In this document: piece after piece, positions 1-41,716 of the stretch
Layout of the letters: the number at the start of each line of letters is the position of its first letter
Position numbering within the stretch: the stretch's first letter is position 1
Assembly: GCA_046598045.1 (NCBI GenBank)
Contig: JBKJJJ010000113.1
Location: 800 to 64,799 of the forward strand
Length of the DNA stretch: 64,000 nt
Direction of reading: 5' to 3'
Origin: Candidatus Eiseniibacteriota bacterium
GTDB taxonomy: Bacteria; Eisenbacteria; RBG-16-71-46; DASYSL01
Position numbers and translations under genes: made by a program
The notes under the pieces: model-generated
What the model was told of the DNA's origin: nothing
Databases searched by the model: none
Seen by the model: the letters and a program-made list of their open reading frames with translations, nothing else

Positions 1-1080
1 CGTCTCGTCTACGTGAAGGACGGCGCGCTACTGGCCCGCAAGTTCGACCCGAACTCCGGAAAGCTCCTCGGCGAACCGCTCGTCATCGGCGAGAACGCGG
101 GCTCGACCAGCAACACGCAGGCGTTTTCCACGTCGAGTGTCGGCGCGATCGCCTACCAGAGCACGGGGCAGGGCGACACGCAGCGGATCGCGCGCTTCGA
201 CCGCGCGGGCAAGCGCCTCGGCACGGTTCTCGAGCCGACGGTGTACTCGAGCCTGTCGCTTTCCCCGGACGGACACCGCCTGGCGATCTCCGCGCGCGAC
301 GCGCAGGCCACGAAGAGCGATCTCTGGATCGTCGACCTCGATCGCAGCATCCGGACCAAGTTCACGTTCGACCCCGGCGACGAGATCTGGCCCGTGTGGT
401 CCCCGGACGGACAGACGATCGCGTTCGCCTCGGATCGCAGTGGCGTGTACCGCATCATGGTCAAGCCCGTCTCGGGCCTGGTCGACGAGAAGGAGCTACC
501 CGGCCAGGTCGGCGCCCACGTCGGGCCGGTCCAGTGGTCGGACGACGGGGCGTGGATCACGGCGATGCAGATCGGCGAGGTGGGGGACTGGAACGCGCTC
601 GTCTACCCGGCTACTGACTTGAGCAAGCCGGTCGTGCTCGCGGCGACGACGTTCAACGAGATGGGACCCGTGATCTCGGCGGATGGAAGGTTCGTCGCGT
701 ACTCGACGAACGAGTCCGGCGCGAACGAAGTCTACGTGCAGACGTTTCCCAAGGCGACCGGTCGCTGGCAGGTGTCGACGGCGCACGGGCTCTACCCGTT
801 CTGGGCGGCGGGCGACAGGGAGCTGATCTACCGCCAGACCGGCGGGCAGGTGGTCAGCGCCCCGGTGACGATGAGCGCGGCCGGCGCACTCCAGCCGGGT
901 GCGCCGGTCCTCCTGTTCCAGGGGTTCACGCTGACCTCGAACCCCGGCCGGTGGTGCGTCTCGCGCGACGGTAAGGAGATCTTCCTGCTTGAGCCCGCCG
1001 GCGCGTCCTCCGGCAAGGTCACGCCGATCATCGTGATCCTCGATGCGGGCGCGGAATTGGCGGAGAAGGCGAAGCATTGA
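1..1080 (+). CDS. TolB-like / PD40 (WD40-like) beta-propeller repeat protein, C-terminal part. The frame is open to base 1, so the 5' end lies outside the window.
   Basis: Repeated PD40-type motifs in ORF 13..1080 (LSPDGHRLAIS, WSPDGQTIAFASDRSG, ISADGRFVAYSTNESGANEVYV). The frame continues upstream of the first start codon (RLVYVKDG...). Confidence 0.75.
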   Translation, partial: RLVYVKDGALLARKFDPNSGKLLGEPLVIGENAGSTSNTQAFSTSSVGAIAYQSTGQGDTQRIARFDRAGKRLGTVLEPTVYSSLSLSPDGHRLAISARDAQATKSDLWIVDLDRSIRTKFTFDPGDEIWPVWSPDGQTIAFASDRSGVYRIMVKPVSGLVDEKELPGQVGAHVGPVQWSDDGAWITAMQIGEVGDWNALVYPATDLSKPVVLAATTFNEMGPVISADGRFVAYSTNESGANEVYVQTFPKATGRWQVSTAHGLYPFWAAGDRELIYRQTGGQVVSAPVTMSAAGALQPGAPVLLFQGFTLTSNPGRWCVSRDGKEIFLLEPAGASSGKVTPIIVILDAGAELAEKAKH

Positions 1081-2154: not shown

Positions 2155-4236
2155 GTGCCCAAGACGCCGCCCAAGAGCCAGGCCACCGCCGACGTCCCGG
2201 CCGCGGATCCTTCCGCGCCCTCGGACCACCGCGCGCTCGCGCTGGCGTATCGCCCGCAGACGTTCGACGACGTCGCCGGGCAGCGCCACGTCACCGACGT
2301 GCTGGCGAAGGCGGTCGAACACAACCGCGTCGCGCACGCGTACCTGTTCAGCGGCCCGCGCGGCACCGGCAAGACCACGACCGCGCGCATCCTCGCCAAG
2401 GTGCTCAACTGCCCGAACCGCGTGGGCACCGCCCCGTGCAACGTGTGCGACACCTGCCGCGACATCACGAGCGGCGTCTCGCTCGACGTGGTCGAGATTG
2501 ACGGCGCGAGCAACCGCGGCATCGCCGACATCCAGCAGCTGCGCGAGGCGGTGCGCTTCGCCGCCACCGGCGGGCGCTCGAAGGTCTACATCATCGACGA
2601 GGTCCACCAGCTCTCGGGCGACGCGTTCGCGGCGCTGCTCAAGACGCTCGAGGAGCCGCCGCCGCACGTGGTGTTCATCTTCGCCACCACCGATCCGCTC
2701 AAGCTGCCCGACACCATCCGCTCGCGCACGCAGCGCTACGAGTTCGCGCGCGTCGCGGTCAAGACGATCGCCGAGCGGCTCAAGACCATCGCTGCGCTCG
2801 AGACCCAGGCCGGCCGCACGCTCGAGCTCACCGATGCCGCCGCGCTCCTGATCGCGCGCAAGGCCGAGGGCGGGCTGCGCGACGCGGTGTCGGCGCTCGA
2901 CCAGGTGGCCTCGACCGGGCGCACGACGATCGACGAGGCGACCGTGTCCGAGGTGCTCGGGCTGGTCTCGCGCGAGGCGTTCTTCGACCTCGCCGAGCCG
3001 ATGTTCGCGCGCGATCCGGCGGCGACGCTCGCGGCGCTCCACCGCGCCTACGCGGGCGGGTTCGATCCCAAGGACCTCGCCGACGGGCTGCTCGAGCACC
3101 TGCGCAACGTGCTCGTGCTCAAGGTCGACCCCGCGGCCGGCGACCTGCTCGCGGCGACGACCGAGGAGTGCGCGCGCTACATCGATCAAGGCAAAGAGCA
3201 CTCGAGCGCCGACGTGCTGCGCCTCGTGCGCATCACGACCGACACCATCGGCCTCCTGCGCGAGGCCTCCCAGCCGCTGCTCCACCTCGAGGCCGCGCTG
3301 CTCGAGATGGCGCACCTCGAGCCCGGCCGGACCCTCGCCGAGATCCTCGACCGCCTCGAGGCGATCGAGGGCGACGCGCCCGCGCCCGCGCCTTCGGGCG
3401 GGGGAGCGCGCCCGCAGACCGCGCCCGCGCCCGCGCCTGCGCGCCCGATGCCGCCGGCGAGCCCCGCGCGCTCGTACGAAGCGCCGCGCATCGCCTCATC
3501 GCCGCCTCCGACAGCCGCGCCTTATGCGCCGCCGCCGCCCGCGACGCGCCCCTCGATCCTGGGGCTCGATGCCGTGCGCCCGGCCGCGCCCGCGCGCCCG
3601 CCGCGTGCGCTCGAAGGCGGCCCGCCGCCCGCGCCCGCCGACTTCGACACGCCCGGACTGTGGCAGCGCGTGGTCGAGCTCGTGCTTCAGCGCAAGCGCA
3701 TGCTCGGCCACTTCCTCGAGACCGCGCGCGTGCCCGGCTGGCAGGACCAGGTGGTCGTGCTCGAGGTCGATCCGGCGCATCGCGGGCTGATCGAGCACAA
3801 GGACAACCGCGCCGTCCTGGTCGCCGCGTTGGCGGAGGTCTACGGACGACCGCTCGATTACCGCTGCGTCGACGCCGCGCCCGGCACGACGGCGCCGCCG
3901 GCCGCCTCGACGCCGCCCGCCGCGAAGAGCGCGCCGCCGGCATCCGCATCCGCATCCGCGCCGAAGCTCGCAATCACCGCACCGCCCGAGGACGAGGCGC
4001 CGCCGCTCGCGGAGCCGCCGCCGGGATTCGTCGACGAGGCCTCCGGCCACGAGGCGTCCCAGGTCGCGCCGCCGGCGGGCCCCGCGACGACGGCCGCGGC
4101 GGAGCCTGCGCGCCGCAAGCACCCGGCCGAGCTCTCGCCGGAGGCGCGCAACACTATGCTATGGTTGGAGGGCGAAATCGTCGGGCCCGCGCGGCCGACG
4201 CCGCCTGCGCAACCTGTGAGGCCAACCGGACGATGA
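2155..4236 (+). CDS. dnaX: DNA polymerase III subunit gamma/tau
   Basis: YRPQTFDDVAGQRHV, the Walker A motif GPRGTGKTTTARILAK, the zinc module CNVCDTCRDI and the box VYIIDEVHQLS. A long Pro/Ala-rich linker precedes the C-terminal tau-like domain. Confidence 0.9.
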   Translation: MPKTPPKSQATADVPAADPSAPSDHRALALAYRPQTFDDVAGQRHVTDVLAKAVEHNRVAHAYLFSGPRGTGKTTTARILAKVLNCPNRVGTAPCNVCDTCRDITSGVSLDVVEIDGASNRGIADIQQLREAVRFAATGGRSKVYIIDEVHQLSGDAFAALLKTLEEPPPHVVFIFATTDPLKLPDTIRSRTQRYEFARVAVKTIAERLKTIAALETQAGRTLELTDAAALLIARKAEGGLRDAVSALDQVASTGRTTIDEATVSEVLGLVSREAFFDLAEPMFARDPAATLAALHRAYAGGFDPKDLADGLLEHLRNVLVLKVDPAAGDLLAATTEECARYIDQGKEHSSADVLRLVRITTDTIGLLREASQPLLHLEAALLEMAHLEPGRTLAEILDRLEAIEGDAPAPAPSGGGARPQTAPAPAPARPMPPASPARSYEAPRIASSPPPTAAPYAPPPPATRPSILGLDAVRPAAPARPPRALEGGPPPAPADFDTPGLWQRVVELVLQRKRMLGHFLETARVPGWQDQVVVLEVDPAHRGLIEHKDNRAVLVAALAEVYGRPLDYRCVDAAPGTTAPPAASTPPAAKSAPPASASASAPKLAITAPPEDEAPPLAEPPPGFVDEASGHEASQVAPPAGPATTAAAEPARRKHPAELSPEARNTMLWLEGEIVGPARPTPPAQPVRPTGR

Positions 4237-32398: not shown

Positions 32399-33744
32399 TG
32401 CGGCGCGAGGGAGGCGAAGGGATGCTGGCGCTCCCCGCGCGTGGCTTTCGGGGGACTTTCATGGTGCTGGCCGTTTCGCTGGCGCTTGTCGGCTCGGTCT
32501 CGCAGGCCGGGGCGGTGACGAAGCGGGCGGCGAAGGCTTCCGCTTCGGCGGCGGCCACGCGGTCGGGATCGGTCGTGCTGGCGCGGGTGGGGAATACCGT
32601 GGTGACGCGGGCGGATTACGAGGCGCGGCTGGCAGACCTGCCGCCGCAGTACAAGGGGCAGTTCACCACGCCCGAGCAGAAGCGCCAGTTCATCGACCGC
32701 CTGCTCGAAGAGAAGGTGTGGCTCGCGACCGCACTCAGGGCCGGCGTCGACAAGCGTCCCGAGGTGCAGAAGCAGTTCGAGAACTATCGCCGCGACACGC
32801 TGATCCGCACCTACCTGGGCGAGGCGATGAAGAACGCGCCGGCCCCGTCGGACTCGCTCGTCCAGTCGTTCTACGACGCGCATGTCAGCGAGTACACGGC
32901 CGAGGAGCAGGTGCAGGTGCGCCAGATCCAGGTCGCGGACGAGAAGACCGCGCTCAAGGTCAAGGGGCTGCTCGCCAAGGGCGGGGACTTCGCCGCGCTG
33001 GCCAAGCAATACTCGACCGACGGCGTGACCAAGGAGAAGGGCGGCGACTTGGGCCCGGTGTCGAAGAGCGGCTTCTTCGGCTCGCTCGGCCGGCAGGAGG
33101 TCCTCGCCGACAGCGCGTTCGCGGCGCCGATGAACTCGGTGCGCGGGCCGATCAAGACCGCACTCGGCTGGCACCTGATCGAGATCACGGGCCGCACCGC
33201 GGCGCACGCGCGGCCGATCGAAGAGGTCAAGCCGGTGATCGTCCGCCAGCTCACGCAGCAGGTGAACCAGGACTTCTACCAGTCGAGCCTGAAGCAGGCG
33301 AAGGTCACGGTCGGGCTCAAGCTCGAGGAGGCGGCGATCAACGAGGCCGTCAACTCCAAGAAGTCAGCGGTCGAGATGTTCCGCGATGCGGGCGAAGTGC
33401 CGAACGTGGACGATCGCATCGCCGCCTATCGCAACGTCGTGGCCAGCTACCCGGAGAGCGAATACGCCCCGCAGGCGCTGTTCATGGTGGGATTCGTTGA
33501 GTCCGAGGAAAAGAGGGATTACGATCAGGCTGAGGCGTCGTTCAAGGACCTGCTCACGAAGTATCCCCGGAGCGAGCTGGTGTCGTCGGCGCAGTGGATG
33601 ATCGACAACATGCGCTCGGACAAGACCCCGGACTTCGACCTGCCGGGCGACCTGGGGAAGGCGAGCGACCACGACGCGGCGCAGCATGCGAGCCCAAAGC
33701 TGCATGACCTGCCGGTGGAGAACCAGAAGCCCGGCAAGCCGTAG
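32395..33744 (+). CDS. Secreted parvulin-type peptidyl-prolyl isomerase (SurA/PrsA-like) with a TPR-like C-terminal region
   Basis: Signal peptide. SurA-N-like helices. Parvulin core VQVRQIQVADE...GGDLGPVSKSGFFG...GPIKTALGWHLIEITGR. Confidence 0.8.
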   Translation: MMRREGGEGMLALPARGFRGTFMVLAVSLALVGSVSQAGAVTKRAAKASASAAATRSGSVVLARVGNTVVTRADYEARLADLPPQYKGQFTTPEQKRQFIDRLLEEKVWLATALRAGVDKRPEVQKQFENYRRDTLIRTYLGEAMKNAPAPSDSLVQSFYDAHVSEYTAEEQVQVRQIQVADEKTALKVKGLLAKGGDFAALAKQYSTDGVTKEKGGDLGPVSKSGFFGSLGRQEVLADSAFAAPMNSVRGPIKTALGWHLIEITGRTAAHARPIEEVKPVIVRQLTQQVNQDFYQSSLKQAKVTVGLKLEEAAINEAVNSKKSAVEMFRDAGEVPNVDDRIAAYRNVVASYPESEYAPQALFMVGFVESEEKRDYDQAEASFKDLLTKYPRSELVSSAQWMIDNMRSDKTPDFDLPGDLGKASDHDAAQHASPKLHDLPVENQKPGKP

Positions 33745-33769
33745 CGCGAGACCACAGGGGGAGGCGGCG

Positions 33770-34258
33770 ATGGCGGTGATCGAGGTCAAGATCAACGGAC
33801 TGGCCCCCGACCCGCAGGCGGACAGCCACATCCTCATCCTCAAGGAAAAGGACGGGGAGCGCGTGCTCCCGATCGTGATCGGCCCCGCCGAGGCGCAGGC
33901 AATTGCCCGCGAATTGGCGGGGCAACGTTTTTCCCGCCCGTACACCCACGACCTGCTCGCGACCATCGTCGAGGGCCTCAAGGCGAAGGTCACGCGCATC
34001 GTGATCTCCGACCTGCGCGAGAACACGTTCTATGCCCACCTCGTGATCGAGAAGGACGGCGAAGTGGTCGCGATCGATGCCCGTCCCTCGGACTCGATCG
34101 CGCTCGCGCTGCGCTGCGGCGCCGACATCTTCGTCAACGAGAAGCTGCTCGCCGAGCCCGGCGAGCAGGACGAGTTGAGCGAGGAGGAGAAGGCGCAGCA
34201 GCTAAGGCGCTTTCTCGAGAATCTGGATCCGGAAGACTTCGGGAAGTACAACCCTTGA
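33770..34258 (+). CDS. Bifunctional nuclease family protein (DUF151/BFN)
   Basis: ILILKEKDGERVLPIVIGPAEAQAIA...RPYTHDLL...VVISDLRENTFYAHL...IDARPSDSIALALR. Confidence 0.8.
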   Translation: MAVIEVKINGLAPDPQADSHILILKEKDGERVLPIVIGPAEAQAIARELAGQRFSRPYTHDLLATIVEGLKAKVTRIVISDLRENTFYAHLVIEKDGEVVAIDARPSDSIALALRCGADIFVNEKLLAEPGEQDELSEEEKAQQLRRFLENLDPEDFGKYNP

Positions 34259-34443: not shown

Positions 34444-35622
34444 CTAGCGACCCCGCAACTGTCGATCGAGCGTGCGGCGGAGCGTCTCCCACGCGCGCAA
34501 CACCTCGCTGCGATTTCCCCGGCAGTACGCCAGCGCCACCCGCGGATCCGCCTTCGCCAGCCGCGTCATTCCGCGAAACCCCGGTCCCGCGAGCCCGCGC
34601 CTCTCCGCCCCGGCCCCGCTCGCCGCGATCGCCATCGAGATCAAGTAGGGGAGATGGCTCGTCCGCGCCAGCGCGCGGTCGTGCGCGGCGGGCGTGACGA
34701 TGAGCGCCTTCGCGCCCACCGCGCGCACGAGCTTGCGCGCCGCCGCCGGCACCGGGACGCCGCGCACCGGCAGCAGCGCGAACGAGGCGCCATCGAACAA
34801 CTCCGCGCGGGCCGACGCGAACCCGTGCCCCTCGTTGCCCGCAATCGGGTGCCCGCCGACCGCGCGCACGCCGAGCTTCGCGGCCCGCGCGAGCGCCTCG
34901 GTCACGCCGCCTCGCGCGCTGCCCGTGTCCATCAACACGGCGCCGCGCGGGAGCGCCTTCGCCGCGCGGTCGATCAGCGTGGGGAGCGCGTCGACCGGCA
35001 CCGCAAGGAGCGCGATCGCCGCGCCCGCGCACGCCTCGTCCAGCGTGCGCGCGACGCGATCGATCGCGCCGCCGCGCAAGGCCGCCCGCGCCACCCGCGG
35101 ATCGCGATCGAAGCCCACGCGCTCGAAGCCGCCCGCGCGCCCGAGCGCGAGGCCGAGCGAGCCCCCGATCTGCCCGAGCCCGAGCAGCGCGACGCGCGTC
35201 TTGCGAGCACCGGCGCTCGCCTGCACCACCGAACGCCCCCGAGAGGATGCGAGATCCGGCCGCAAGGCCTCCGCGCCATCGAGGTACACCGGCACGAGGC
35301 GGCGCGCGCGCGGCGCGCCCTCGACCGTGAGCAGCACGCGCACCACGCGGGGCAGGGCGTGCGGCACGTCGACCTCGGTCGCCCCGAGCAGGGGGACGTC
35401 GGCCCAGCCAAGCTTGCGCGCGGCGTGCGCAGGGAAATCGGCGGTCAAGTCGGGCGTCGCGGTGAAGATCGCGCTCACGATGCGCTCGGGCTTGAGGCCG
35501 TTGAGGCGCACGAGCTCGAGCAAGAGGCGCGCGGTCGAGGCGCGGATCGCCTCGGCGCGGTTCGCGGGCACCTGGATCGCGCCGCGGACGGCGGCGATGC
35601 GGCCAGGGGTGGAGCGGGGCAT
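34444..35622 (-). CDS. tyrA: Fusion protein: AroH-type chorismate mutase (N-terminal) plus prephenate dehydrogenase TyrA (C-terminal)
   Basis: The N-terminal approximately 120 aa (AAVRGAIQVPANRAEAIRASTARLL...IVSAIFTATPDLTADFPA...) match the AroH class CM. These are followed by VALLGLGQIGGSLGLAL (Rossmann) and GGHPIAG (prephenate dehydrogenase signature). Confidence 0.85.
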   Translation of the reverse strand: MPRSTPGRIAAVRGAIQVPANRAEAIRASTARLLLELVRLNGLKPERIVSAIFTATPDLTADFPAHAARKLGWADVPLLGATEVDVPHALPRVVRVLLTVEGAPRARRLVPVYLDGAEALRPDLASSRGRSVVQASAGARKTRVALLGLGQIGGSLGLALGRAGGFERVGFDRDPRVARAALRGGAIDRVARTLDEACAGAAIALLAVPVDALPTLIDRAAKALPRGAVLMDTGSARGGVTEALARAAKLGVRAVGGHPIAGNEGHGFASARAELFDGASFALLPVRGVPVPAAARKLVRAVGAKALIVTPAAHDRALARTSHLPYLISMAIAASGAGAERRGLAGPGFRGMTRLAKADPRVALAYCRGNRSEVLRAWETLRRTLDRQLRGR

Positions 35623-35658
35623 GGAGCCTCCTGGGGTCGAAACCGCGGGGCAGGCACG

Positions 35659-35690
35659 AAAAAGCCCACTTCCGGGCCTCTGGAAGTGGG
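35659..35690 (-). terminator. Intrinsic terminator on the minus strand (9-bp stem CCCACTTCC/GGAAGTGGG, 8-nt loop, then CTTTTTC)
   Basis: Read directly. It lies 130 nt after the amidase stop and only 37 nt before the aroH-tyrA start codon. A canonical U-tract terminator is rare in this GC-rich window. Confidence 0.65.
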
Positions 35691-35713
35691 TTCGGTGCGA
35701 GTCGCGAACGACG

Positions 35714-35785
35714 TTACGCCGAGGCCCACTCCGGGCTGGGGTAGGCGGCGTAATACGAATTGTTCAGGCGCGCGAGCGAGTTCAT
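35714..35785 (-). promoter_or_regulatory. Candidate 23-codon leader peptide MNSLARLNNSYYAAYPSPEWASA (3 Tyr and 1 Trp) upstream of the terminator
   Basis: ATG at 35785 and TAA at 35716-35714 on the minus strand. The Tyr codons sit in an unusually AT-rich patch (aacaattcgtattac). The 3' end of the ORF overlaps a segment (GGAGTGGG) complementary to the 5' arm of the terminator. No strong SD. Confidence 0.35.
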
Positions 35786-35820
35786 GACCTGGAGAGTCTA
35801 CGCCCCTCGCGCCGGGGAGG

Positions 35821-38424
35821 TCAACGGGTTGCAGCGGGTACGTCGAGCGTTGCGCCCGGGTTCGGCGCGGGCAGCGTCACGCGCATGATCGTCCCCCCCG
35901 CAGCGAGCGTCACCCCCGCACCCGCCGGCAACCCGTCGAAGCGCGCCTTCCCGTTCGCGTCCGTCATCAGGATCCAGCGCCCGTCGAGTTCGATCGGCAC
36001 GCCCGCCGCGGGCGCGCCGGCGCGCGTCGCGGTGACCGGCAACGCGACGAACGCCTTGGCATCGCCGCCCAGGTCTTCGAGCAGAGCGAGGTAGATCGCG
36101 TACGCCTCGTCCCGCAGGCGGGCCGCGCCGCGCGCGGGCTCGGCGTATGCCGTGCGGGCGTCGGGCAGGTTGACCGCGACCGCGACCGCCGCGGTCTGCT
36201 GGACGAGATACGCGGGCGACTCCACAACGCTCGCCCCGCGCGTGACGCCCCGATCATCCAGCCGCGCCGTAATCCGCCGCGCCAGCGCCTTTCCGCCCGC
36301 GCTCGAGAAGTAGTGCCCCGCGCTCGCGGACCGCGGCGCCGCGCGGTGGGAAAGCGAGAGCACGCGCTCCGCCCCGAACGCCTCGGTGACGCGCAGGCGG
36401 GCGACCGCGTCGAGCGAGTCGGGCCGGTCGCGCGTGAGCGTGACCACCGCGCCCGCGGCCTCGAGATACTCGCGCAGCGCGCGCGCGGTGCGCAGGTTCG
36501 CGTCGGCCTCGATCGCCTGCGCGCGCCGGGCCGCGAGCGCGTCGCCCGGCGTGCCGGCGGCGGGGGCGGTGACCGTGGAGTCGAACCGCGCGGAGTCCCC
36601 GGGCCCCGAGTCGCCGGGCCCCGCGAACATGCCCGTCGTGTCCGCACCGCCGCCCGCCGGGTCGAGCGCGATGCGCCGCCCGAGCAGCGCGCCGCCGGCG
36701 ATCGCGGCCAGGCGCAACTGCGTGACCGCCGGGCGCGCCGACGCGGCCAGGGGCGGAGAGGCGAGCGTCACCCAACCCGCGGCTGATGCGGTCGGCGGCG
36801 CGCTGTCGGGCGCGGCTGCGAGCGCGAAGAACCCGTCGGCATTGGTCCGCGCAGTCGTGCTGTCGCCCGCGCCGCCGCGCACTGTCGCGCCGGCGATCGG
36901 CCGCCCGTCGGCGGTGCGCGCGAACCCGCTGACCGCGCGCGCCGGGGCGCCGGGCGCGGCGAGCGTGACGTGCGCCGCACCGTCCGCGACGGTCAAGCCC
37001 GGGCGCGGCCGGACGAGGGTGCCGACGAAGTCCGCGATGCTCCCGCCCGTGATCCGCGCGTACGCGCGCGCCTCGCCCGGCGTCGGCGCGCCAATGAGCG
37101 AATCCACGATCACCGCCCCGACGCGCGCGGTGAAGCGCGCGCGCACCGTGTCCGCGAGCGCGCGGCCGTGGCGATCGAGCGCCCGCAGCGTGAGGCCCGC
37201 GAGCTGTCCCGGCGCGAGCCTGCCGCCGGCTGGCGCGATCTCGAGGGTCTCGCGCGCGACCGGGAGCACGACCTCGAACGAATCGCGCCGCGCCTTGCTC
37301 CAGTTGCCGCCGGCCGCGCGCATTGCCCACTCGACGCGGTGCCAGCCGTCGGTCAAGGGCGTGGGCGGCCGCCACCTCAGCGTCCACGCGCCCGGGACGA
37401 TCCTCCCGCTCGCGCTGGCGAAGCGCTCGATCCGCGACGTGTCGACCGCCGCGCCGTCGACCACGAGCCGGACCGTGCCGGGCGCGCGGTCGGCGACGGC
37501 CACGATCCACGGGCGCTCGGCGCCGTCCTGCGGGTCGTCGACCGTGGTGATCGGGTCGACGCGCGTCGCGACCACGCGCGGCACGCCCTGGCGGAAGTAG
37601 TCGAGCAGCCCGAGGAAATACGCCTCGGCCTCGAGCCGTTGTTTGGACGCGAGCTGGAGCCGCGATTCGACGTCGGGGTTCGTCAGGTACGACGACTCGC
37701 CGAGCACCGCCGCGCCCACCGCGTTGCGCACCACGAAGTAGTTGCCCGGCAGCAGGCGGTCCGCGCCCACCCCGAGGTTGAGCGCCAGGTGTCGATGAAT
37801 CGCCTGGCCGAGATCCCAGCTCGCCTCGGGGTCGGTGAACTTGTAGTAGGTCTGGGTCTCGTTCAGGTCGTGGCGCGCGCCCGCGTCCGCGTTGTGGTGG
37901 ATCGAGAGGAACACGTCGGGGTCGAATGCGTTCGCCTTCGCGCTGCGCGCGGCGAGGTCGGAGCGGAGCGAGCTGTCGATCGGCGTGCCGAAGTCCTTGT
38001 CCGCGGTGCGCGTGAGCAGCACCTCGGCGCCCGCGTCGGTCAGCAGGCCCCAGAGGTGAAGCGCGACCCCGAGGTTGACCTCGGCCTCGGTCAGGCCGTG
38101 GACGCCGATCGAGCCCGGGAAGCGCCCGCCGTGCCCCGGGTCGATCGCGACCCTCCGGCCGCGCAAGGGCGTGGTATCGAGGCCCGTGAGCGGCTCGACG
38201 CGGCGCTCGTAGCCGGGCAGCGCGCGGCCGCCGCCGGGCGCGACACTCGGCGTGGAGGGCGGCTCGGGCTCGCCGGTCTTCAAGGCGGTGGCAGGCTTGC
38301 GCTCGGGCTTGGTGTCGGCTGCCGGAGGCGCGGGCGCAGCAGTACGCGGATGCTTGCCCGCGCAGCCCGCCGCGGCGAGCGCCAGGGCAAAGGCGAACAG
38401 GGGCAAGGCGCGGCGCAGGGACAT
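35821..38424 (-). CDS. Lipoprotein with two N-acetylmuramoyl-L-alanine amidase (Amidase_3) domains separated by a long Ig-like/beta-rich region
   Basis: Lipobox LALAAAGC. The first domain reads RRVAIDPGHGG...VFLSIHHNA...YFVVRNA...ESSYLTNP. A second amidase-like segment lies near the C-terminus (RRIALDPAGGG...VLSLSHRAA). This is only the 3' 2.6 kb of the 1652-aa ORF in the track. Confidence 0.85.
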   Translation of the reverse strand: MSLRRALPLFAFALALAAAGCAGKHPRTAAPAPPAADTKPERKPATALKTGEPEPPSTPSVAPGGGRALPGYERRVEPLTGLDTTPLRGRRVAIDPGHGGRFPGSIGVHGLTEAEVNLGVALHLWGLLTDAGAEVLLTRTADKDFGTPIDSSLRSDLAARSAKANAFDPDVFLSIHHNADAGARHDLNETQTYYKFTDPEASWDLGQAIHRHLALNLGVGADRLLPGNYFVVRNAVGAAVLGESSYLTNPDVESRLQLASKQRLEAEAYFLGLLDYFRQGVPRVVATRVDPITTVDDPQDGAERPWIVAVADRAPGTVRLVVDGAAVDTSRIERFASASGRIVPGAWTLRWRPPTPLTDGWHRVEWAMRAAGGNWSKARRDSFEVVLPVARETLEIAPAGGRLAPGQLAGLTLRALDRHGRALADTVRARFTARVGAVIVDSLIGAPTPGEARAYARITGGSIADFVGTLVRPRPGLTVADGAAHVTLAAPGAPARAVSGFARTADGRPIAGATVRGGAGDSTTARTNADGFFALAAAPDSAPPTASAAGWVTLASPPLAASARPAVTQLRLAAIAGGALLGRRIALDPAGGGADTTGMFAGPGDSGPGDSARFDSTVTAPAAGTPGDALAARRAQAIEADANLRTARALREYLEAAGAVVTLTRDRPDSLDAVARLRVTEAFGAERVLSLSHRAAPRSASAGHYFSSAGGKALARRITARLDDRGVTRGASVVESPAYLVQQTAAVAVAVNLPDARTAYAEPARGAARLRDEAYAIYLALLEDLGGDAKAFVALPVTATRAGAPAAGVPIELDGRWILMTDANGKARFDGLPAGAGVTLAAGGTIMRVTLPAPNPGATLDVPAATR

Positions 38425-38484
38425 GGCGGGCAGGCTAACAGAGGCGGGGCGCGGCGGCCACCGCGATCGGCCCCCGAAATCGCC

Positions 38485-38514
38485 TTGACACAAGGCTTTA
38501 ACCGCGACCACAAT
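38485..38514 (+). promoter_or_regulatory. Candidate sigma70-type promoter of the liv operon (TTGACA-N18-CACAAT)
   Basis: A consensus -35 at 38485-38490 and a -10-like hexamer at 38509-38514, about 90 nt upstream of the livJ-like ATG. Confidence 0.35.
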
Positions 38515-38601
38515 GCCGCGTTTCGCCCCGACTTCCGCTTTGCCCGGGCCTCTCCCCGGGACGCCCTCGGGGTCTCGATTCCCGCCCGCTCGGAGGTCGT
38601 A

Positions 38602-39798
38602 ATGCGCCCCATGATGAGCCGTCTCGCCGCTTGCCTCGCCATCCTCGCCCTGGTCGCCGGCTGCGCCCCGAAATCGGCCAGCACGCTCAAGGTCGGCATC
38701 TACGGATCGACCACCGGGGGGACCGCGACGTTCGGCAAGTCGACCGTCAACGGCGCCCAGCTCGCGTTCGAGGAGGCCAACGCCGCCGGCGGCGTCGGCG
38801 GCATGAAGCTCGAGTGGCCGACCGAGGACGATCAGTCCAAAGCCGAGGAGGCCGCGACCGCGGTCCAGAAGCTGATCACCCAGGATCACGTGATTGCGCT
38901 CATCGGCGAGGTCGCCTCGTCGCGCTCGCTCGCGGCGGCGCCGATCGCACAGAGCAACGGTGTGCCCATGATCTCGCCCAGCTCGACCAACCCCGAGGTC
39001 ACGAAGAAGGGCAACTTCATCTTCCGGGCGTGCTTCCTCGACGAGTTCCAGGGCCGCGTCATGGCGCGCTTCGCCGCCGACACGCTCAAGCTCAAGCGCG
39101 TCGCGATCTTGACGGACACCAAGAACGACTACTCGGTCGGCCTCTCCCAGTTCTTCGTGGACGAGTACAAGCTCCGCGGCGGCTCGATCGTCGGGGAAAA
39201 GTCGTATTTCGAGGGCGACTCGGACTTCCGCTCGGCGCTGACCGCGCTCAAGGCTAACAACCCCGACGCGATCTTCGTGCCCGGCTACTACACCGAGGTC
39301 GGCTCGATCGCGCGCCAGGCCCGCGAACTCGGCCTCACCGTGCCGCTCCTGGGCGGCGACGGCTGGGTCTCGGACCAGCTGCTCAAGATCGGCGGTGACG
39401 CGCTCAACGGCTCGTACTACTCGAATCACTTCGCGCCCGACCAGCCGAGCGCGAGCCTCCAGAAGTTCCTGACCGACTACAAGGCGAAGTACAACTCGAG
39501 CCCCGACGCGATCGCCGGCCTCGCCTACGACACCGCGAACCTCGTGGTCGACGCGCTCAAGCGCCTGCAGGCGTCGGACCCGGCGGCGTTCGCCGCGCTG
39601 GGCTCGGACAAGAGCGGCAACGCCGAGGCGGCGAAGGCCGCGCGCGCGAAGTTGCGCGACATGATCAACAACGTGAAGGACTTCCCGGGCATCACGGGCG
39701 TGATCAACTTCGACGCCAATAGGAACCCGGTCAAGCCGGCGGTCGTGATCAAGATCGAGGGCGGCGTCGAGAAGTTCGCGGCGTCGATCGCGCCCTAG
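38602..39798 (+). CDS. Branched-chain amino acid ABC transporter substrate-binding lipoprotein (LivJ/LivK family)
   Basis: Lipobox ALVAGC. VGIYGSTTGGTATFG, LIGEVASSRSLAAAPIA, PMISPSSTNPEVT and RVAILTDTKNDYSVG are type I PBP Leu/Ile/Val-binding patterns. Confidence 0.9.
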   Translation: MRPMMSRLAACLAILALVAGCAPKSASTLKVGIYGSTTGGTATFGKSTVNGAQLAFEEANAAGGVGGMKLEWPTEDDQSKAEEAATAVQKLITQDHVIALIGEVASSRSLAAAPIAQSNGVPMISPSSTNPEVTKKGNFIFRACFLDEFQGRVMARFAADTLKLKRVAILTDTKNDYSVGLSQFFVDEYKLRGGSIVGEKSYFEGDSDFRSALTALKANNPDAIFVPGYYTEVGSIARQARELGLTVPLLGGDGWVSDQLLKIGGDALNGSYYSNHFAPDQPSASLQKFLTDYKAKYNSSPDAIAGLAYDTANLVVDALKRLQASDPAAFAALGSDKSGNAEAAKAARAKLRDMINNVKDFPGITGVINFDANRNPVKPAVVIKIEGGVEKFAASIAP

Positions 39799-39819
39799 TC
39801 CGGCCCCGCCCCCGCGCGC

Positions 39820-40722
39820 ATGCAGGAGTTCCTCCAGCAGCTGGTCAACGGCATCACGTGGGGCAGCGTGTACGCGCTGATCGCGCTCGGATACACGATG
39901 GTCTACGGCATCCTGCGCCTGATCAACTTCGCGCACGGTGACATCTTCATGCTCGGCGCGTTCATCGCGTACTACGCGGCGGGCTGGTTCGGCGTGCAGA
40001 CGCACCCCTCGGCATGGGGCGCGCTGCTCGTGCTCGTGACCGCGATGACGGGCGCGGGAATCGCGGGCTTCGTGATCGAGCGCTTCGCCTACCGCCCCGT
40101 GCGCAAGTCCTCGCGCCTGACCGCGCTGATCACCGCGATCGGCGTGTCGCTGCTGCTCGAGAACGGCGGGCTGCTCGTGTTCGGCACCGACCCGCGATTC
40201 TTCCCGCAGGTCGCGACCGTCCAGAAGATCGCGCTCGGCGGCGGCGTCACGGTGACCAACATCCAGCTCATCATCCTCGCGGTGTCGATCGTGCTCATGC
40301 TCGCGCTGCGCTGGATCGTGATGTCGACCAAGACCGGCAAGGCGATGCGCGCGGTGTCGTTCAACCGCGACGCCGCGACGCTGATGGGCATCGACACCGA
40401 CCGGATCATCTCGTTCACGTTCGTGCTGGGCGCGGTGCTCGCGGCCGCGGCCGGGGTCCTCGTCGGACTGATGAACCCCAAGATCGATCCCTTGATGGGC
40501 ATCATGCCCGGCCTCAAGGCGTTCGTCGCCGCGGTGGTGGGCGGGATCGGCAACATCCCGGGCGCGGTGCTCGGCGGGCTGATCATGGGCGTGTCCGAGG
40601 TCCTGGTCGTCGGCTACGTGTCCTCGACCTACCGCGACGCGATCGCGTTCGTGCTCCTGATCGCGATCCTCCTGTTCCGCCCGTCGGGGCTGCTCGGCAA
40701 ACACCAGGCCGAGAAGGTCTAG
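39820..40722 (+). CDS. livH: Branched-chain amino acid ABC transporter permease
   Basis: QQLVNGITWGSVYALIALGYTMVYGILRLINFAHGD and GKAMRAVSFNRDAATLMGI are classic LivH. Confidence 0.9.
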   Translation: MQEFLQQLVNGITWGSVYALIALGYTMVYGILRLINFAHGDIFMLGAFIAYYAAGWFGVQTHPSAWGALLVLVTAMTGAGIAGFVIERFAYRPVRKSSRLTALITAIGVSLLLENGGLLVFGTDPRFFPQVATVQKIALGGGVTVTNIQLIILAVSIVLMLALRWIVMSTKTGKAMRAVSFNRDAATLMGIDTDRIISFTFVLGAVLAAAAGVLVGLMNPKIDPLMGIMPGLKAFVAAVVGGIGNIPGAVLGGLIMGVSEVLVVGYVSSTYRDAIAFVLLIAILLFRPSGLLGKHQAEKV

Positions 40723-40726
40723 CCCC

Positions 40727-41716
40727 ATGGCGCGCGCACTCAAGACCGCCGGGATCCTCGTCCTCCTGGTCGTGCTCAACGCCCTGATGCCGACGCTGGT
40801 GCCGAACAGCTACTACGCGCGCGTCATCATGCTGTGCGGCATCAACGTGATCCTGGCGGTGAGCCTCAACCTGGTCAACGGCTTCACGGGCCAGTTCTCG
40901 ATCGGCCACGCGGGCTTCATGGCGATCGGCGCGTACACCTCGGCCGTGCTCACGATGCGCGCGCTGCCCGGCGCGATCGCCGCCATGGCCGCGGCCGGCG
41001 TGCCGCCCATGGTCGCGCACGGCGCCGCGCTGCTGCTGGCGACACTCGCGGGCGGATCGCTCGCCGCGGTCGCGGGGCTCGCGGTCGGGCTGCCGTCCCT
41101 GCGGCTGAGGGGCGATTACCTCGCGATCGTGACGCTCGGCTTCGGCGAGATCATCCGCGTCATCATCCTCAACGTCGAAGCGATCGGCGGCGCGCGCGGG
41201 CTGTCGGGCGTGCCGGCGTACACGAACTTCTTCTGGGTCGCGCTCTGGGCCTTTGTCGTAATTGGCGTGTCGTATAACCTGCTCGGTTCGACGCACGGCC
41301 GGGCGATGCTCGCGATTCGCGAGGACGAGATCGCCGCCGAGTCGCTCGGCGTGCCGACGACGCGCTACAAGGTGATGGCGTTCGTGGTGTCGGCGTTCTT
41401 CGCGGGGGTCGCGGGCGCGCTCTACGCGCACTACGACAGCTACCTCAACCCGGCATCGTTCACGTTCCTGCGCTCGATCGAGATCATCGCCATGATCGTG
41501 CTCGGCGGCATGGGATCGGTCTCGGGCGCGATCATGGCCGCCATCGCGCTCACCGTCCTGCCCGAGGCGCTGCGCGGCGTGAAGGAGTACCGCATGGTGA
41601 TCTATGCGCTGCTCCTGATCGTACTCATGATCACGCGCCCCTCGGGCATCATGGGCACGCGCGAGTTGTCGCTCGCCTGGCTCAAGCGCAGGTTCGCGCG
41701 GGGAGCGGCGTCGTGA
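40727..41716 (+). CDS. livM: Branched-chain amino acid ABC transporter permease
   Basis: NLVNGFTGQFSIGHAGFMAIGAYTSA, LRGDYLAIVTLGFGEIIR and GRAMLAIREDEIAAESLGV. Confidence 0.9.
   Translation: MARALKTAGILVLLVVLNALMPTLVPNSYYARVIMLCGINVILAVSLNLVNGFTGQFSIGHAGFMAIGAYTSAVLTMRALPGAIAAMAAAGVPPMVAHGAALLLATLAGGSLAAVAGLAVGLPSLRLRGDYLAIVTLGFGEIIRVIILNVEAIGGARGLSGVPAYTNFFWVALWAFVVIGVSYNLLGSTHGRAMLAIREDEIAAESLGVPTTRYKVMAFVVSAFFAGVAGALYAHYDSYLNPASFTFLRSIEIIAMIVLGGMGSVSGAIMAAIALTVLPEALRGVKEYRMVIYALLLIVLMITRPSGIMGTRELSLAWLKRRFARGAAS

Follow-up and report, generated by a model that had tools for sequence, protein, structure and literature searches.

In the window, i.e., the whole 64-kb stretch of Candidatus Eisenbacteria DNA analysed here, a 198-nt spacer (35623-35820, read on the minus strand) separates an N-acetylmuramoyl-L-alanine amidase gene from aroH-tyrA, which encodes a fusion of chorismate mutase and prephenate dehydrogenase. 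Very probably, this spacer carries a transcription attenuator of the ribosome-mediated, leader-peptide type, through which aroH-tyrA is controlled in response to charged tRNA-Tyr. An attenuator had been proposed in an earlier examination of the letters alone (hereafter the sequence-only reading), and the proposal is now supported by the conservation of a short open reading frame (ORF) with Tyr codons, by its linkage to tyrA and by covariation in three RNA helices. These findings, together with the sequence elements themselves and an enrichment of Tyr codons in the frame of the leader, are directly established.

Leader ORF, putative promoter and RNA segments in the window

The spacer between the amidase gene and aroH-tyrA has the position and the length of 198 nt given by the sequence-only reading, and the elements listed there are present: the 23-codon ORF with three Tyr codons (35785-35714), a segment over the end of this ORF (GGAGTGGG, 35732-35725), and a canonical intrinsic terminator with a 9-bp stem and U5 (35659-35690). 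The terminator is a predicted one, with a fold of -16.7 kcal/mol. It consists of CCCACTTCC (35690-35682), an 8-nt loop, GGAAGTGGG (35673-35665) and C+TTTTT (35664-35659), with six of the nine stem pairs being G-C, and is one of only two terminator-like sites in 3 kb. The distance from its end to the aroH-tyrA start codon is 36 nt. Coordinates of all features are in Table 1.

The predicted antiterminator forms between 35732-35725 (segment 2) and 35690-35683 (segment 3), with 8 contiguous pairs that include one G-U, and has an energy of -13.2 kcal/mol; the duplex scores z = -5.1 against dinucleotide shuffles. The 8 bp of this pairing were given correctly by the sequence-only reading, but the bulge that it placed in the duplex is not needed. 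A further hairpin, absent from the earlier list, is formed by segments 1 and 2. Its inner helix pairs CUACCCC with GGAGUGG (35732-35726), with one C-A mismatch, and its outer helix joins UACGCCG and CGGCGUA over 7 bp; inner and outer helices together give -21.2 kcal/mol. The leader stop codon (35716-35714) lies 8 nt past segment 2 (GGAGUGGG).

A sigma-70-like sequence, TTGACC-18-TAGACT (35824-35795), is found in front of the leader ORF. It is the sole such site in 3 kb, where shuffled sequences give 0.1, and transcription is predicted to start at about 35789-35787, i.e., 2-4 nt before the leader AUG. Two of the caveats of the sequence-only reading concern this region. The missing Shine-Dalgarno (SD) sequence of the leader ORF is indeed missing; the supposed lack of room for a promoter falls away, as the promoter-like sequence overlaps the amidase stop codon. 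Of 41 relatives, 36 have a TANNNT box 6-10 nt ahead of the start codon of the leader, and most relatives show a TTGAC-like -35 sequence 17-19 nt upstream of this -10 box. An SD-like motif is found with only 1 of the 41 leaders, compared with 30 of 41 upstream of the estimated tyrA start. Because the -10 box is positioned 6-10 nt before the start codon and the SD-like motif is limited to one leader, the leader ORF is most likely translated from leaderless or nearly leaderless RNA. The putative promoter is at consensus level in the window and its position is kept among relatives; the leader is, we infer, translated.

Table 1. Positions of features in the window, in alignment A2 of the relatives and in loci from other phyla
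Feature	Source	Position	Strand	Remarks
-35 hexamer TTGACC	window	35819-35824	(-)	overlaps amidase stop codon TGA; promoter scan
-10 hexamer TAGACT	window	35795-35800	(-)	9 nt ahead of leader ATG; promoter scan
Leader ORF, 23 codons + stop, MNSLARLNNSYYAAYPSPEWASA	window	35714-35785	(-)	kept as an ORF across 41 distinct relatives
Tyr codons 11 and 12 (TAT TAC), proposed stall sites	window	35750-35755	(-)	codons 35755-35753, 35752-35750
Tyr codon 15 (TAC), most conserved Tyr	window	35741-35743	(-)	within segment 1; A2 columns 53-55
Segment 1	window	35738-35752	(-)	inner CUACCCC 35744-35738, outer UACGCCG 35752-35746; last Tyr codon + CCCC
Segment 2	window	35715-35732	(-)	GGAGUGGG 35732-35725, outer partner CGGCGUA 35721-35715; pairs with segment 1 or 3
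Segment 3, CCCACUUCC	window	35682-35690	(-)	terminator 5′ arm; 35683-35690 also pair with segment 2
Segment 4, GGAAGUGGG	window	35659-35673	(-)	terminator 3′ arm 35673-35665, then C + UUUUU (U-run) 35664-35659
SD AGGAGG of aroH-tyrA	window	35627-35632	(-)	direct reading of sequence
aroH-tyrA, AroH-type chorismate mutase + prephenate dehydrogenase fusion, 392 aa	window	34444-35622	(-)	Pfam CM_1, PDH_N, PDH_C
N-acetylmuramoyl-L-alanine amidase (Amidase_3)	window	stop codon TGA 35823-35821	(-)	upstream neighbour of spacer
ABC permease genes, BPD_transp_2	window	39820-40722 and 40727-41716	(+)	
BFN_dom gene	window	33686-34258	(+)	next after aroH-tyrA, convergent
Segment 1	A2	columns 52-59		last Tyr codon plus CCCC
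Segment 2	A2	columns 64-72		GGGGUGGG or GGGGAYGGG
Segment 3	A2	columns 133-141		CCCACUUCC or CCCGUCUCC
Segment 4	A2	columns 152-160		terminator 3′ arm
Leader with Tyr-rich stretch NYYRYYYC	L064, Zixibacteria	2794-2941		
Leader with Tyr-rich stretch YYRYYYYY	L072, Zixibacteria	about 200 nt before aroH start		
Leader with Tyr-rich stretch YYYFYYYC	L071, Ignavibacteriales	276-449		
Leader with Tyr-rich stretch YYFFYFY	L047, Ignavibacteriales	about 200 nt before aroH start		
Leader with Tyr-rich stretch YYYWFYYY	L049, Lentisphaeria	about 200 nt before aroH start		
Leader with Tyr-rich stretch YYYARYYRRYYC	L147, unassigned contig	2584-2758		

Conservation among relatives and in other phyla

Thirty-five homologues of the fusion protein were aligned, and the alignment was used to fetch 160 loci, half of them from GTDB genomes and half from JGI metagenomes (80 each); the tyrA start was located in every one. 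The nearest tyrA homologues come from Candidatus Eisenbacteria. A scan of all 160 loci gave the leader arrangement in 46, of which 41 are distinct. Conservation of the mini-ORF and its Tyr codons, which the sequence-only reading had named as a check, is found in these 41 distinct Eisenbacteria sequences, where leaders with 2-4 in-frame Tyr codons, together with the antiterminator segment and the terminator, lie directly upstream of aroH-tyrA. Typical leader peptides among the relatives are MNTSRAYAYAYAYPLRGW..., MHTPRSTYAYAYRYPRPGMG... and MKNRASYACAYAYPPRGWASA. Among the closest relatives, the loci L003, L081, L153, L150, L146 and L149 display the promoter, the Tyr mini-ORF, GGGGUGGG, and the CCCACUUCC hairpin with its U-run. 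In L001, L002, L082, L155, L052 and L039, tyrA comes directly after the upstream gene, without the leader arrangement. Upstream sequence of 700 nt or more is available for 89 Eisenbacteria-type loci, and 35 of them have the leader directly upstream of aroH-tyrA.

The 1:2 hairpin and the terminator of the relatives served to build a covariance model, termed R1. It matches the window once, at 35654-35785 on the minus strand (70.5 bits, E = 4e-18), and a single match at this E-value shows that the element exceeds chance; no second copy was detected by R1 in the 64-kb window. Strong matches in the 160 loci are situated directly upstream of a tyrA homologue, and the remaining strong ones are minus-strand terminator palindromes. 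Other R1 matches in the flanks of these loci are opposite-strand terminator palindromes or are weak.

The leaders are rich in tyrosine. Tyr makes up 114 of 915 leader residues (12.5%), compared with 1.35% in the window proteins encoded on the two sides of the spacer, and the other aromatic residues are scarce (Phe 0.9%, Trp 2.1%). TAY triplets occur 114 times in frame and 0 and 3 times in the other two frames. It should be noted that the first list of leaders demanded at least two Tyr residues. The count was therefore redone on ORFs chosen by geometry only, i.e., ORFs of 10-50 codons that cover the partner of the antiterminator and stop before the terminator; these have 11.9% Tyr, with at least two Tyr in 31 of 32 loci.

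The reading frame across GGGGUGGG varies among relatives, to give G-W in some and G-V-G in others, and the Pro and Gly codons of the leader supply the two strands, CCCC and GGGG, that make up the 1:2 helix. Thus this part is conserved as RNA, whereas Tyr is conserved as codons. The ratio of TAT to TAC is 61:53 in the leader ORFs of the alignment described below and 3:14 in tyrA plus the amidase gene of the window, the latter being a small sample. The share of TAT in the leaders is due in part to pairing of the third codon base (column 55) with column 68 of segment 2; frequent TAT may also mean slower decoding.

Alignment A2 comprises 41 leaders, from the AUG to the U-run. The terminator helix 3:4 has 96.0% of its cells paired, with 33 double-change cells. 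For the antiterminator helix 2:3 (columns 64-72:133-141) the values are 97.4% and 21 cells, and for the 1:2 helix (columns 52-59:64-71) 93.2% and 18 cells. Compensatory changes, another check named in the sequence-only reading, are therefore present in all three helices. Only 41-67% of cells are paired for any of the three when the partner is slid by 1-3 columns, and none of 500 shuffles reached the observed percentage paired for each of the helices. The linked columns are 55 (third base of the last Tyr codon, U/C), 68 (A/G), 137 (U/C) and 156. An unguided run of RNAalifold returns the 1:2 hairpin and the terminator.

When leaders are tested one by one, the best upstream partner of the terminator 5′ arm scores above dinucleotide shuffles in 46 of 47 leaders at p <= 0.05 and in 37 of 47 at p <= 0.01. 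In the 11 leaders that were detailed, this partner lies within the ORF and ends 7-22 nt before the stop codon; its start is 8-14 nt past the last Tyr codon in 9 of the 11.

R1 also gave weaker matches upstream of aroH-tyrA homologues that have only 35-47% identity. These distant leaders (Table 1) have 5-8 Tyr, a terminator and a matching antiterminator, and in some of them Phe or Trp is mixed in. Segments 2, 3 and 4 are quite different in sequence and are complementary over 8-13 bp, with z of -3.9 to -6.7; examples of the complementary pairs are CGAUAGCGGG with CCCGCUAUCG, and CGAUGGUGGGCUU with AAGCCCGCCAUCG. Segments that have changed and are still complementary, together with runs of Tyr, provide the strongest single argument for the antiterminator and for tyrosine as the sensed amino acid. 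Locus L047 has a TTGACA-17-TATATT promoter 9 nt before the ATG, which suggests that its leader start is leaderless as well.

Three relatives show reduced forms. The leader of L011 (2811-2942) has a single Tyr left, and D, C and H are found at former Tyr positions, each one base from TAY. L020 (2829-2962) and L125 (442-497) keep a hairpin like that of segments 3:4, and the leader ORF is gone. All three look like decaying copies.

Proposed mechanism and alternative explanations

To model the switch, nascent RNA that ends where segment 4 begins was folded with a ribosome masking the sequence at a Tyr codon or at the stop codon. For the window, 8, 8 and 6 bases of segment 3 are paired upstream when the ribosome is at the three Tyr positions, and 0 bases when it is at the stop codon. 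A ribosome at a Tyr codon gives upstream pairing of segment 3 in nearly all leaders. When the complete leader is folded at equilibrium, the 1:2 plus 3:4 structure has -48.9 kcal/mol compared with -41.7 kcal/mol for the forced antiterminator, and in minimum free energy folds the terminator wins in most leaders even when a ribosome masks a Tyr codon. Folding at equilibrium is by itself not enough to reveal the switch. As equilibrium favours the terminator, the switch must be kinetic and decided before segment 4 is made, as in trp.

The proposed course of events is as follows. From the promoter over the amidase stop codon, transcription would begin 2-4 nt ahead of the leader AUG, and a ribosome would load on the near-leaderless 5′ end. 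When Tyr-tRNA is scarce, the ribosome would stall at Tyr codons 11/12 (or 15), which fall within segment 1 or immediately precede it. If the A site is at Tyr codon 11 or 12, the ribosome would cover about 35770-35740, i.e., all of segment 1, so that segment 2 (GGAGUGGG) is left free. Segment 2 could then pair with segment 3 once the latter is made; this would block the 3:4 terminator, and RNA polymerase would read into aroH-tyrA. When Tyr-tRNA is plentiful, the ribosome would reach the stop codon (35716-35714) and cover about 35731-35702, which is segment 2. If the ribosome is already gone, or never loaded, segment 1 would hold segment 2 and act as an anti-antiterminator. With segment 2 covered or held, 3:4 and the U-run would form and transcription would end 36 nt before the tyrA start. 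In this course the start of transcription, the translation of the ORF, the stalling and the response to tyrosine are inferred steps. Judged from sequence, the element fits ribosome-mediated transcription attenuation, with all of the defining features present at that level.

Several points weigh against this interpretation. The window leader is not the best example of the family, as it has three Tyr codons and no continuous run, and its 1:2 helix has the C-A mismatch. Most of the covariation comes from few sequence classes (CCCACUUCC vs CCCGUCUCC), thus there are fewer independent evolutionary events than cells counted, and the helices were defined from the same sequences that were used to count covariation. 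Unconstrained folding of the nascent RNA is mixed, with either 1:2 formed and segment 3 unpaired, or 8 bases of segment 3 paired upstream. The favoured model presupposes efficient translation of leaderless RNA in Eisenbacteria. The leader is absent from 54 of the 89 related loci, thus leader control is dispensable. Some relatives have poor U-runs after the hairpin. In addition, a search of sequencing runs finds the sequence in DNA metagenomes only, and in no RNA run.

An unlikely alternative is that the leader acts mainly on translation, through access to the ribosome binding site (RBS) of tyrA, with the hairpin unregulated, or that transcriptional and translational control are combined. A CCUCC/CUCCG stretch, complementary to both segment 4 (GCGGAGG) and the tyrA SD, is found between the terminator and this SD in 22 of 41 relatives, e.g., L008, L014, L099, L107 and L124, and the duplex of segment 4 with the downstream stretch beats shuffles in 11 of the 41. 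The stretch could add a translational layer in these relatives, in that formation of the antiterminator lets segment 4 take up the stretch, and the SD is freed. The weak U-runs of several relatives point the same way, and the leaderless polycysteine ORFs of mycobacteria are reported, in the abstract, as attenuators of operonic expression (bioRxiv 10.1101/834739). However, such a fifth segment (CCUCCGC type, pairing with segment 4 or the SD) finds no support in the window (p = 0.6), and it is thus excluded from the explanation of this locus. The window hairpin is also canonical and is followed by C+UUUUU, and the SD (35632-35627) lies 26 nt beyond the U-run and outside every conserved helix.

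It is very unlikely that the leader ribosome stalls for a cause other than Tyr-tRNA, such as a Pro/Gly arrest motif (YP-x-P-G, EF-P) or a general sensing of aromatic amino acids. Y-P-x-x-G is conserved and PPPG is found in some relatives, Phe and Trp stand among the Tyr residues of some distant leaders (YYFFYFY, YYYWFYYY), and the AroR leader of C. glutamicum (Phe-Tyr-Phe) is reported to respond to Phe and not to Tyr (PMC11802643). On the other side, the Pro and Gly codons make up the 1:2 helix strands and the frame of GGGGUGGG varies, therefore RNA pairing is conserved there and not a peptide. The window leader has YPSPE and no polyproline motif, and the low Phe and Trp contents of the leaders given above contrast with that of Tyr.

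It is most improbable that the conserved RNA acts as a switch by binding a ligand, a tRNA or a protein (as a T-box-like element, a riboswitch or a TRAP/PyrR-like target) and that the ORF is incidental. Segment 2, GGGGUGGG, has a superficial resemblance to part of the T-box motif. T-boxes do control tyrosine genes in Firmicutes (PMC1262725). However, a cmscan of 35300-36100 with Rfam 15 at E <= 10 gave only two chance-level matches (a miRNA and an sRNA) and none to the T-box model, and scans of the distant loci L064, L071 and L147 at E <= 1 gave no relevant family, the T-box included. The RNA from AUG to terminator is only about 100 nt and is made up of three competing helices. A switch of this type also leaves unexplained the in-frame Tyr codons (114/0/3), the ORF start 6-10 nt after the -10 box and a stop codon that is always before segment 3, and other phyla keep runs of Tyr while the helix sequences change completely.

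The sequence-only reading had allowed that the hairpin could be simply the amidase terminator, with the Tyr mini-ORF a chance ORF. The hairpin is 131 nt after the amidase stop codon on the same strand, it would also stop any amidase read-through and may serve for this as well, and L020 and L125 keep a similar hairpin without the leader ORF; but the explanation is hardly credible and largely refuted. Leader and hairpin go with tyrA: a homologue of the amidase is absent upstream in 33 of the 35 loci that have the leader, and L001 and L002, where tyrA follows the amidase, have neither hairpin nor ORF. Conservation extends to the ORF, to its Tyr codons and to its reading frame, and segments upstream of the hairpin covary with it. 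Thus the element belongs to tyrA and attenuation in response to Tyr-tRNA remains the favoured explanation. L001 and L002 are two contigs of one metagenome-assembled genome, ant_bin.394, and on both the amidase gene is followed by aroH-tyrA; at 76-77% identity to the window, they suggest either that the bin mixes two strains or that the locus is duplicated.

Flanking genes and comparison with known systems

The window has a G+C content of 70%. The role of aroH-tyrA in tyrosine synthesis, assumed in the sequence-only reading, is borne out by its three Pfam domains (Table 1), and the encoded protein would take chorismate via prephenate to 4-hydroxyphenylpyruvate, toward tyrosine. The next gene, BFN_dom, is convergent, thus the regulated unit is the single gene aroH-tyrA, which is monocistronic here. 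A terminator-like hairpin of 10 pairs (34168-34145, minus strand) is found 276 nt past the tyrA stop codon, within the BFN_dom gene. On the other side of the spacer, the amidase most likely starts at 38424 (MSLRRALPLFAFALALAAAGC, a lipoprotein-like signal). A 1652-aa ORF on the minus strand (35821-40779) was rejected as an artefact of high G+C; its part above 38424 overlaps the two plus-strand ABC permease genes.

A literature search did not find a description of a Tyr leader peptide; older closed-access work was outside its reach. We lean towards the view that a Tyr leader family is truly undescribed. On balance, the data suggest an undescribed, leaderless family of Tyr-specific attenuators in Eisenbacteria, Zixibacteria, Ignavibacteriota and Lentisphaerota, in about half of which a fifth segment resembling an anti-SD sequence perhaps couples antitermination to unmasking of the tyrA RBS. 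The element in the window would be the founding example of this family. For Candidatus Eisenbacteria, which as a phylum lacks any cultured member, it would be the first regulatory element described in concrete terms, and it suggests that leaderless translation operates there. The A2 alignment and the R1 model can be used to annotate tyrA regulation across metagenomes, and the element, being small (about 130 nt) and modular, is a possible tyrosine-responsive genetic part. The mechanism itself is unsurprising; the value lies in a clean and conserved element that is found in several phyla.

RNA-level control of biosynthetic genes by other means or for other amino acids offers several comparisons. 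A survey from 2005 lists attenuators for His, Thr and Phe, and T-boxes for Tyr (PMC1262725). Tyr T-boxes (Bacillus tyrS, tyrosine genes of Firmicutes) likewise read the charging of tRNA-Tyr and choose between terminator and antiterminator (PMC1262725). However, they bind uncharged tRNA without translation, whereas here a conserved ORF is the proposed sensor and the T-box model has no match.

In C. glutamicum, the aroR leader upstream of aroF is reported to respond to Phe limitation, with no effect of Tyr availability (Neshat et al. 2014, as summarised in PMC11802643). It is similar in being a leader-peptide attenuator of the aromatic pathway with a Tyr-containing peptide (Phe-Tyr-Phe), and differs in that it controls DAHP synthase, while here Tyr is the sole enriched residue and the target belongs to the Tyr branch. 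In Acholeplasma, uORFC-13-1 upstream of aroF is a comparative-genomics candidate with promoter boxes in its consensus, and it is similar to the present element in having a candidate upstream ORF and an intrinsic terminator before a gene of the shikimate pathway (PMC8632094). It has an RBS, Phe (UUU) codons and aroF as target, unlike the element described here, and shows no sequence relation to it. The leaderless polycysteine ORFs of mycobacteria are reported to act as Cys-responsive attenuators (bioRxiv 10.1101/834739). In a comparison that is limited to the abstract of that work, they share with the Eisenbacteria leaders an ORF at the leaderless 5′ end, the enrichment of one amino acid and biosynthetic genes downstream, and differ in amino acid and phylum; in the Eisenbacteria element, a clear intrinsic terminator is combined with antiterminator and anti-antiterminator helices that covary.

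The layout is close to that of the classical leaders of E. coli, i.e., trpL, pheL, hisL, leuL and thrL. Well-known cases of leader-peptide attenuation are those for Trp, Phe, His, Leu, Thr and Ile/Val. As in the E. coli leaders, a short ORF is rich in codons for the end-product amino acid, and four segments give the 1:2 hairpin, the 2:3 antiterminator and the 3:4 terminator with U-run. The regulatory codons are in or just before segment 1, the stop codon is beside segment 2, and the regulated gene is in the matching pathway; pheA is also a chorismate mutase fusion. Unlike the E. coli leaders, the element described here would sense tyrosine, and its host is an uncultured phylum with 70% GC. Its ORF lacks an SD and begins 2-4 nt after the predicted start of transcription, and Eisenbacteria leaders have only 2-4 Tyr codons, which often take turns with other codons (Y-x-Y-x-Y) and do not form a run. 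Sequence similarity to an Rfam leader family is lacking, as Trp_leader, Phe_leader, His_leader, Leu_leader, Thr_leader and the leu-phe leader gave no match in 35300-36100 at E <= 10. For tyrosine genes, the known control at the RNA level is that of T-boxes, and in E. coli the TyrR repressor, rather than a leader, regulates tyrA. This leaves a gap that a conserved Tyr leader fills, and, if the proposed mechanism is true, the element is the missing Tyr counterpart of trpL, pheL and hisL.

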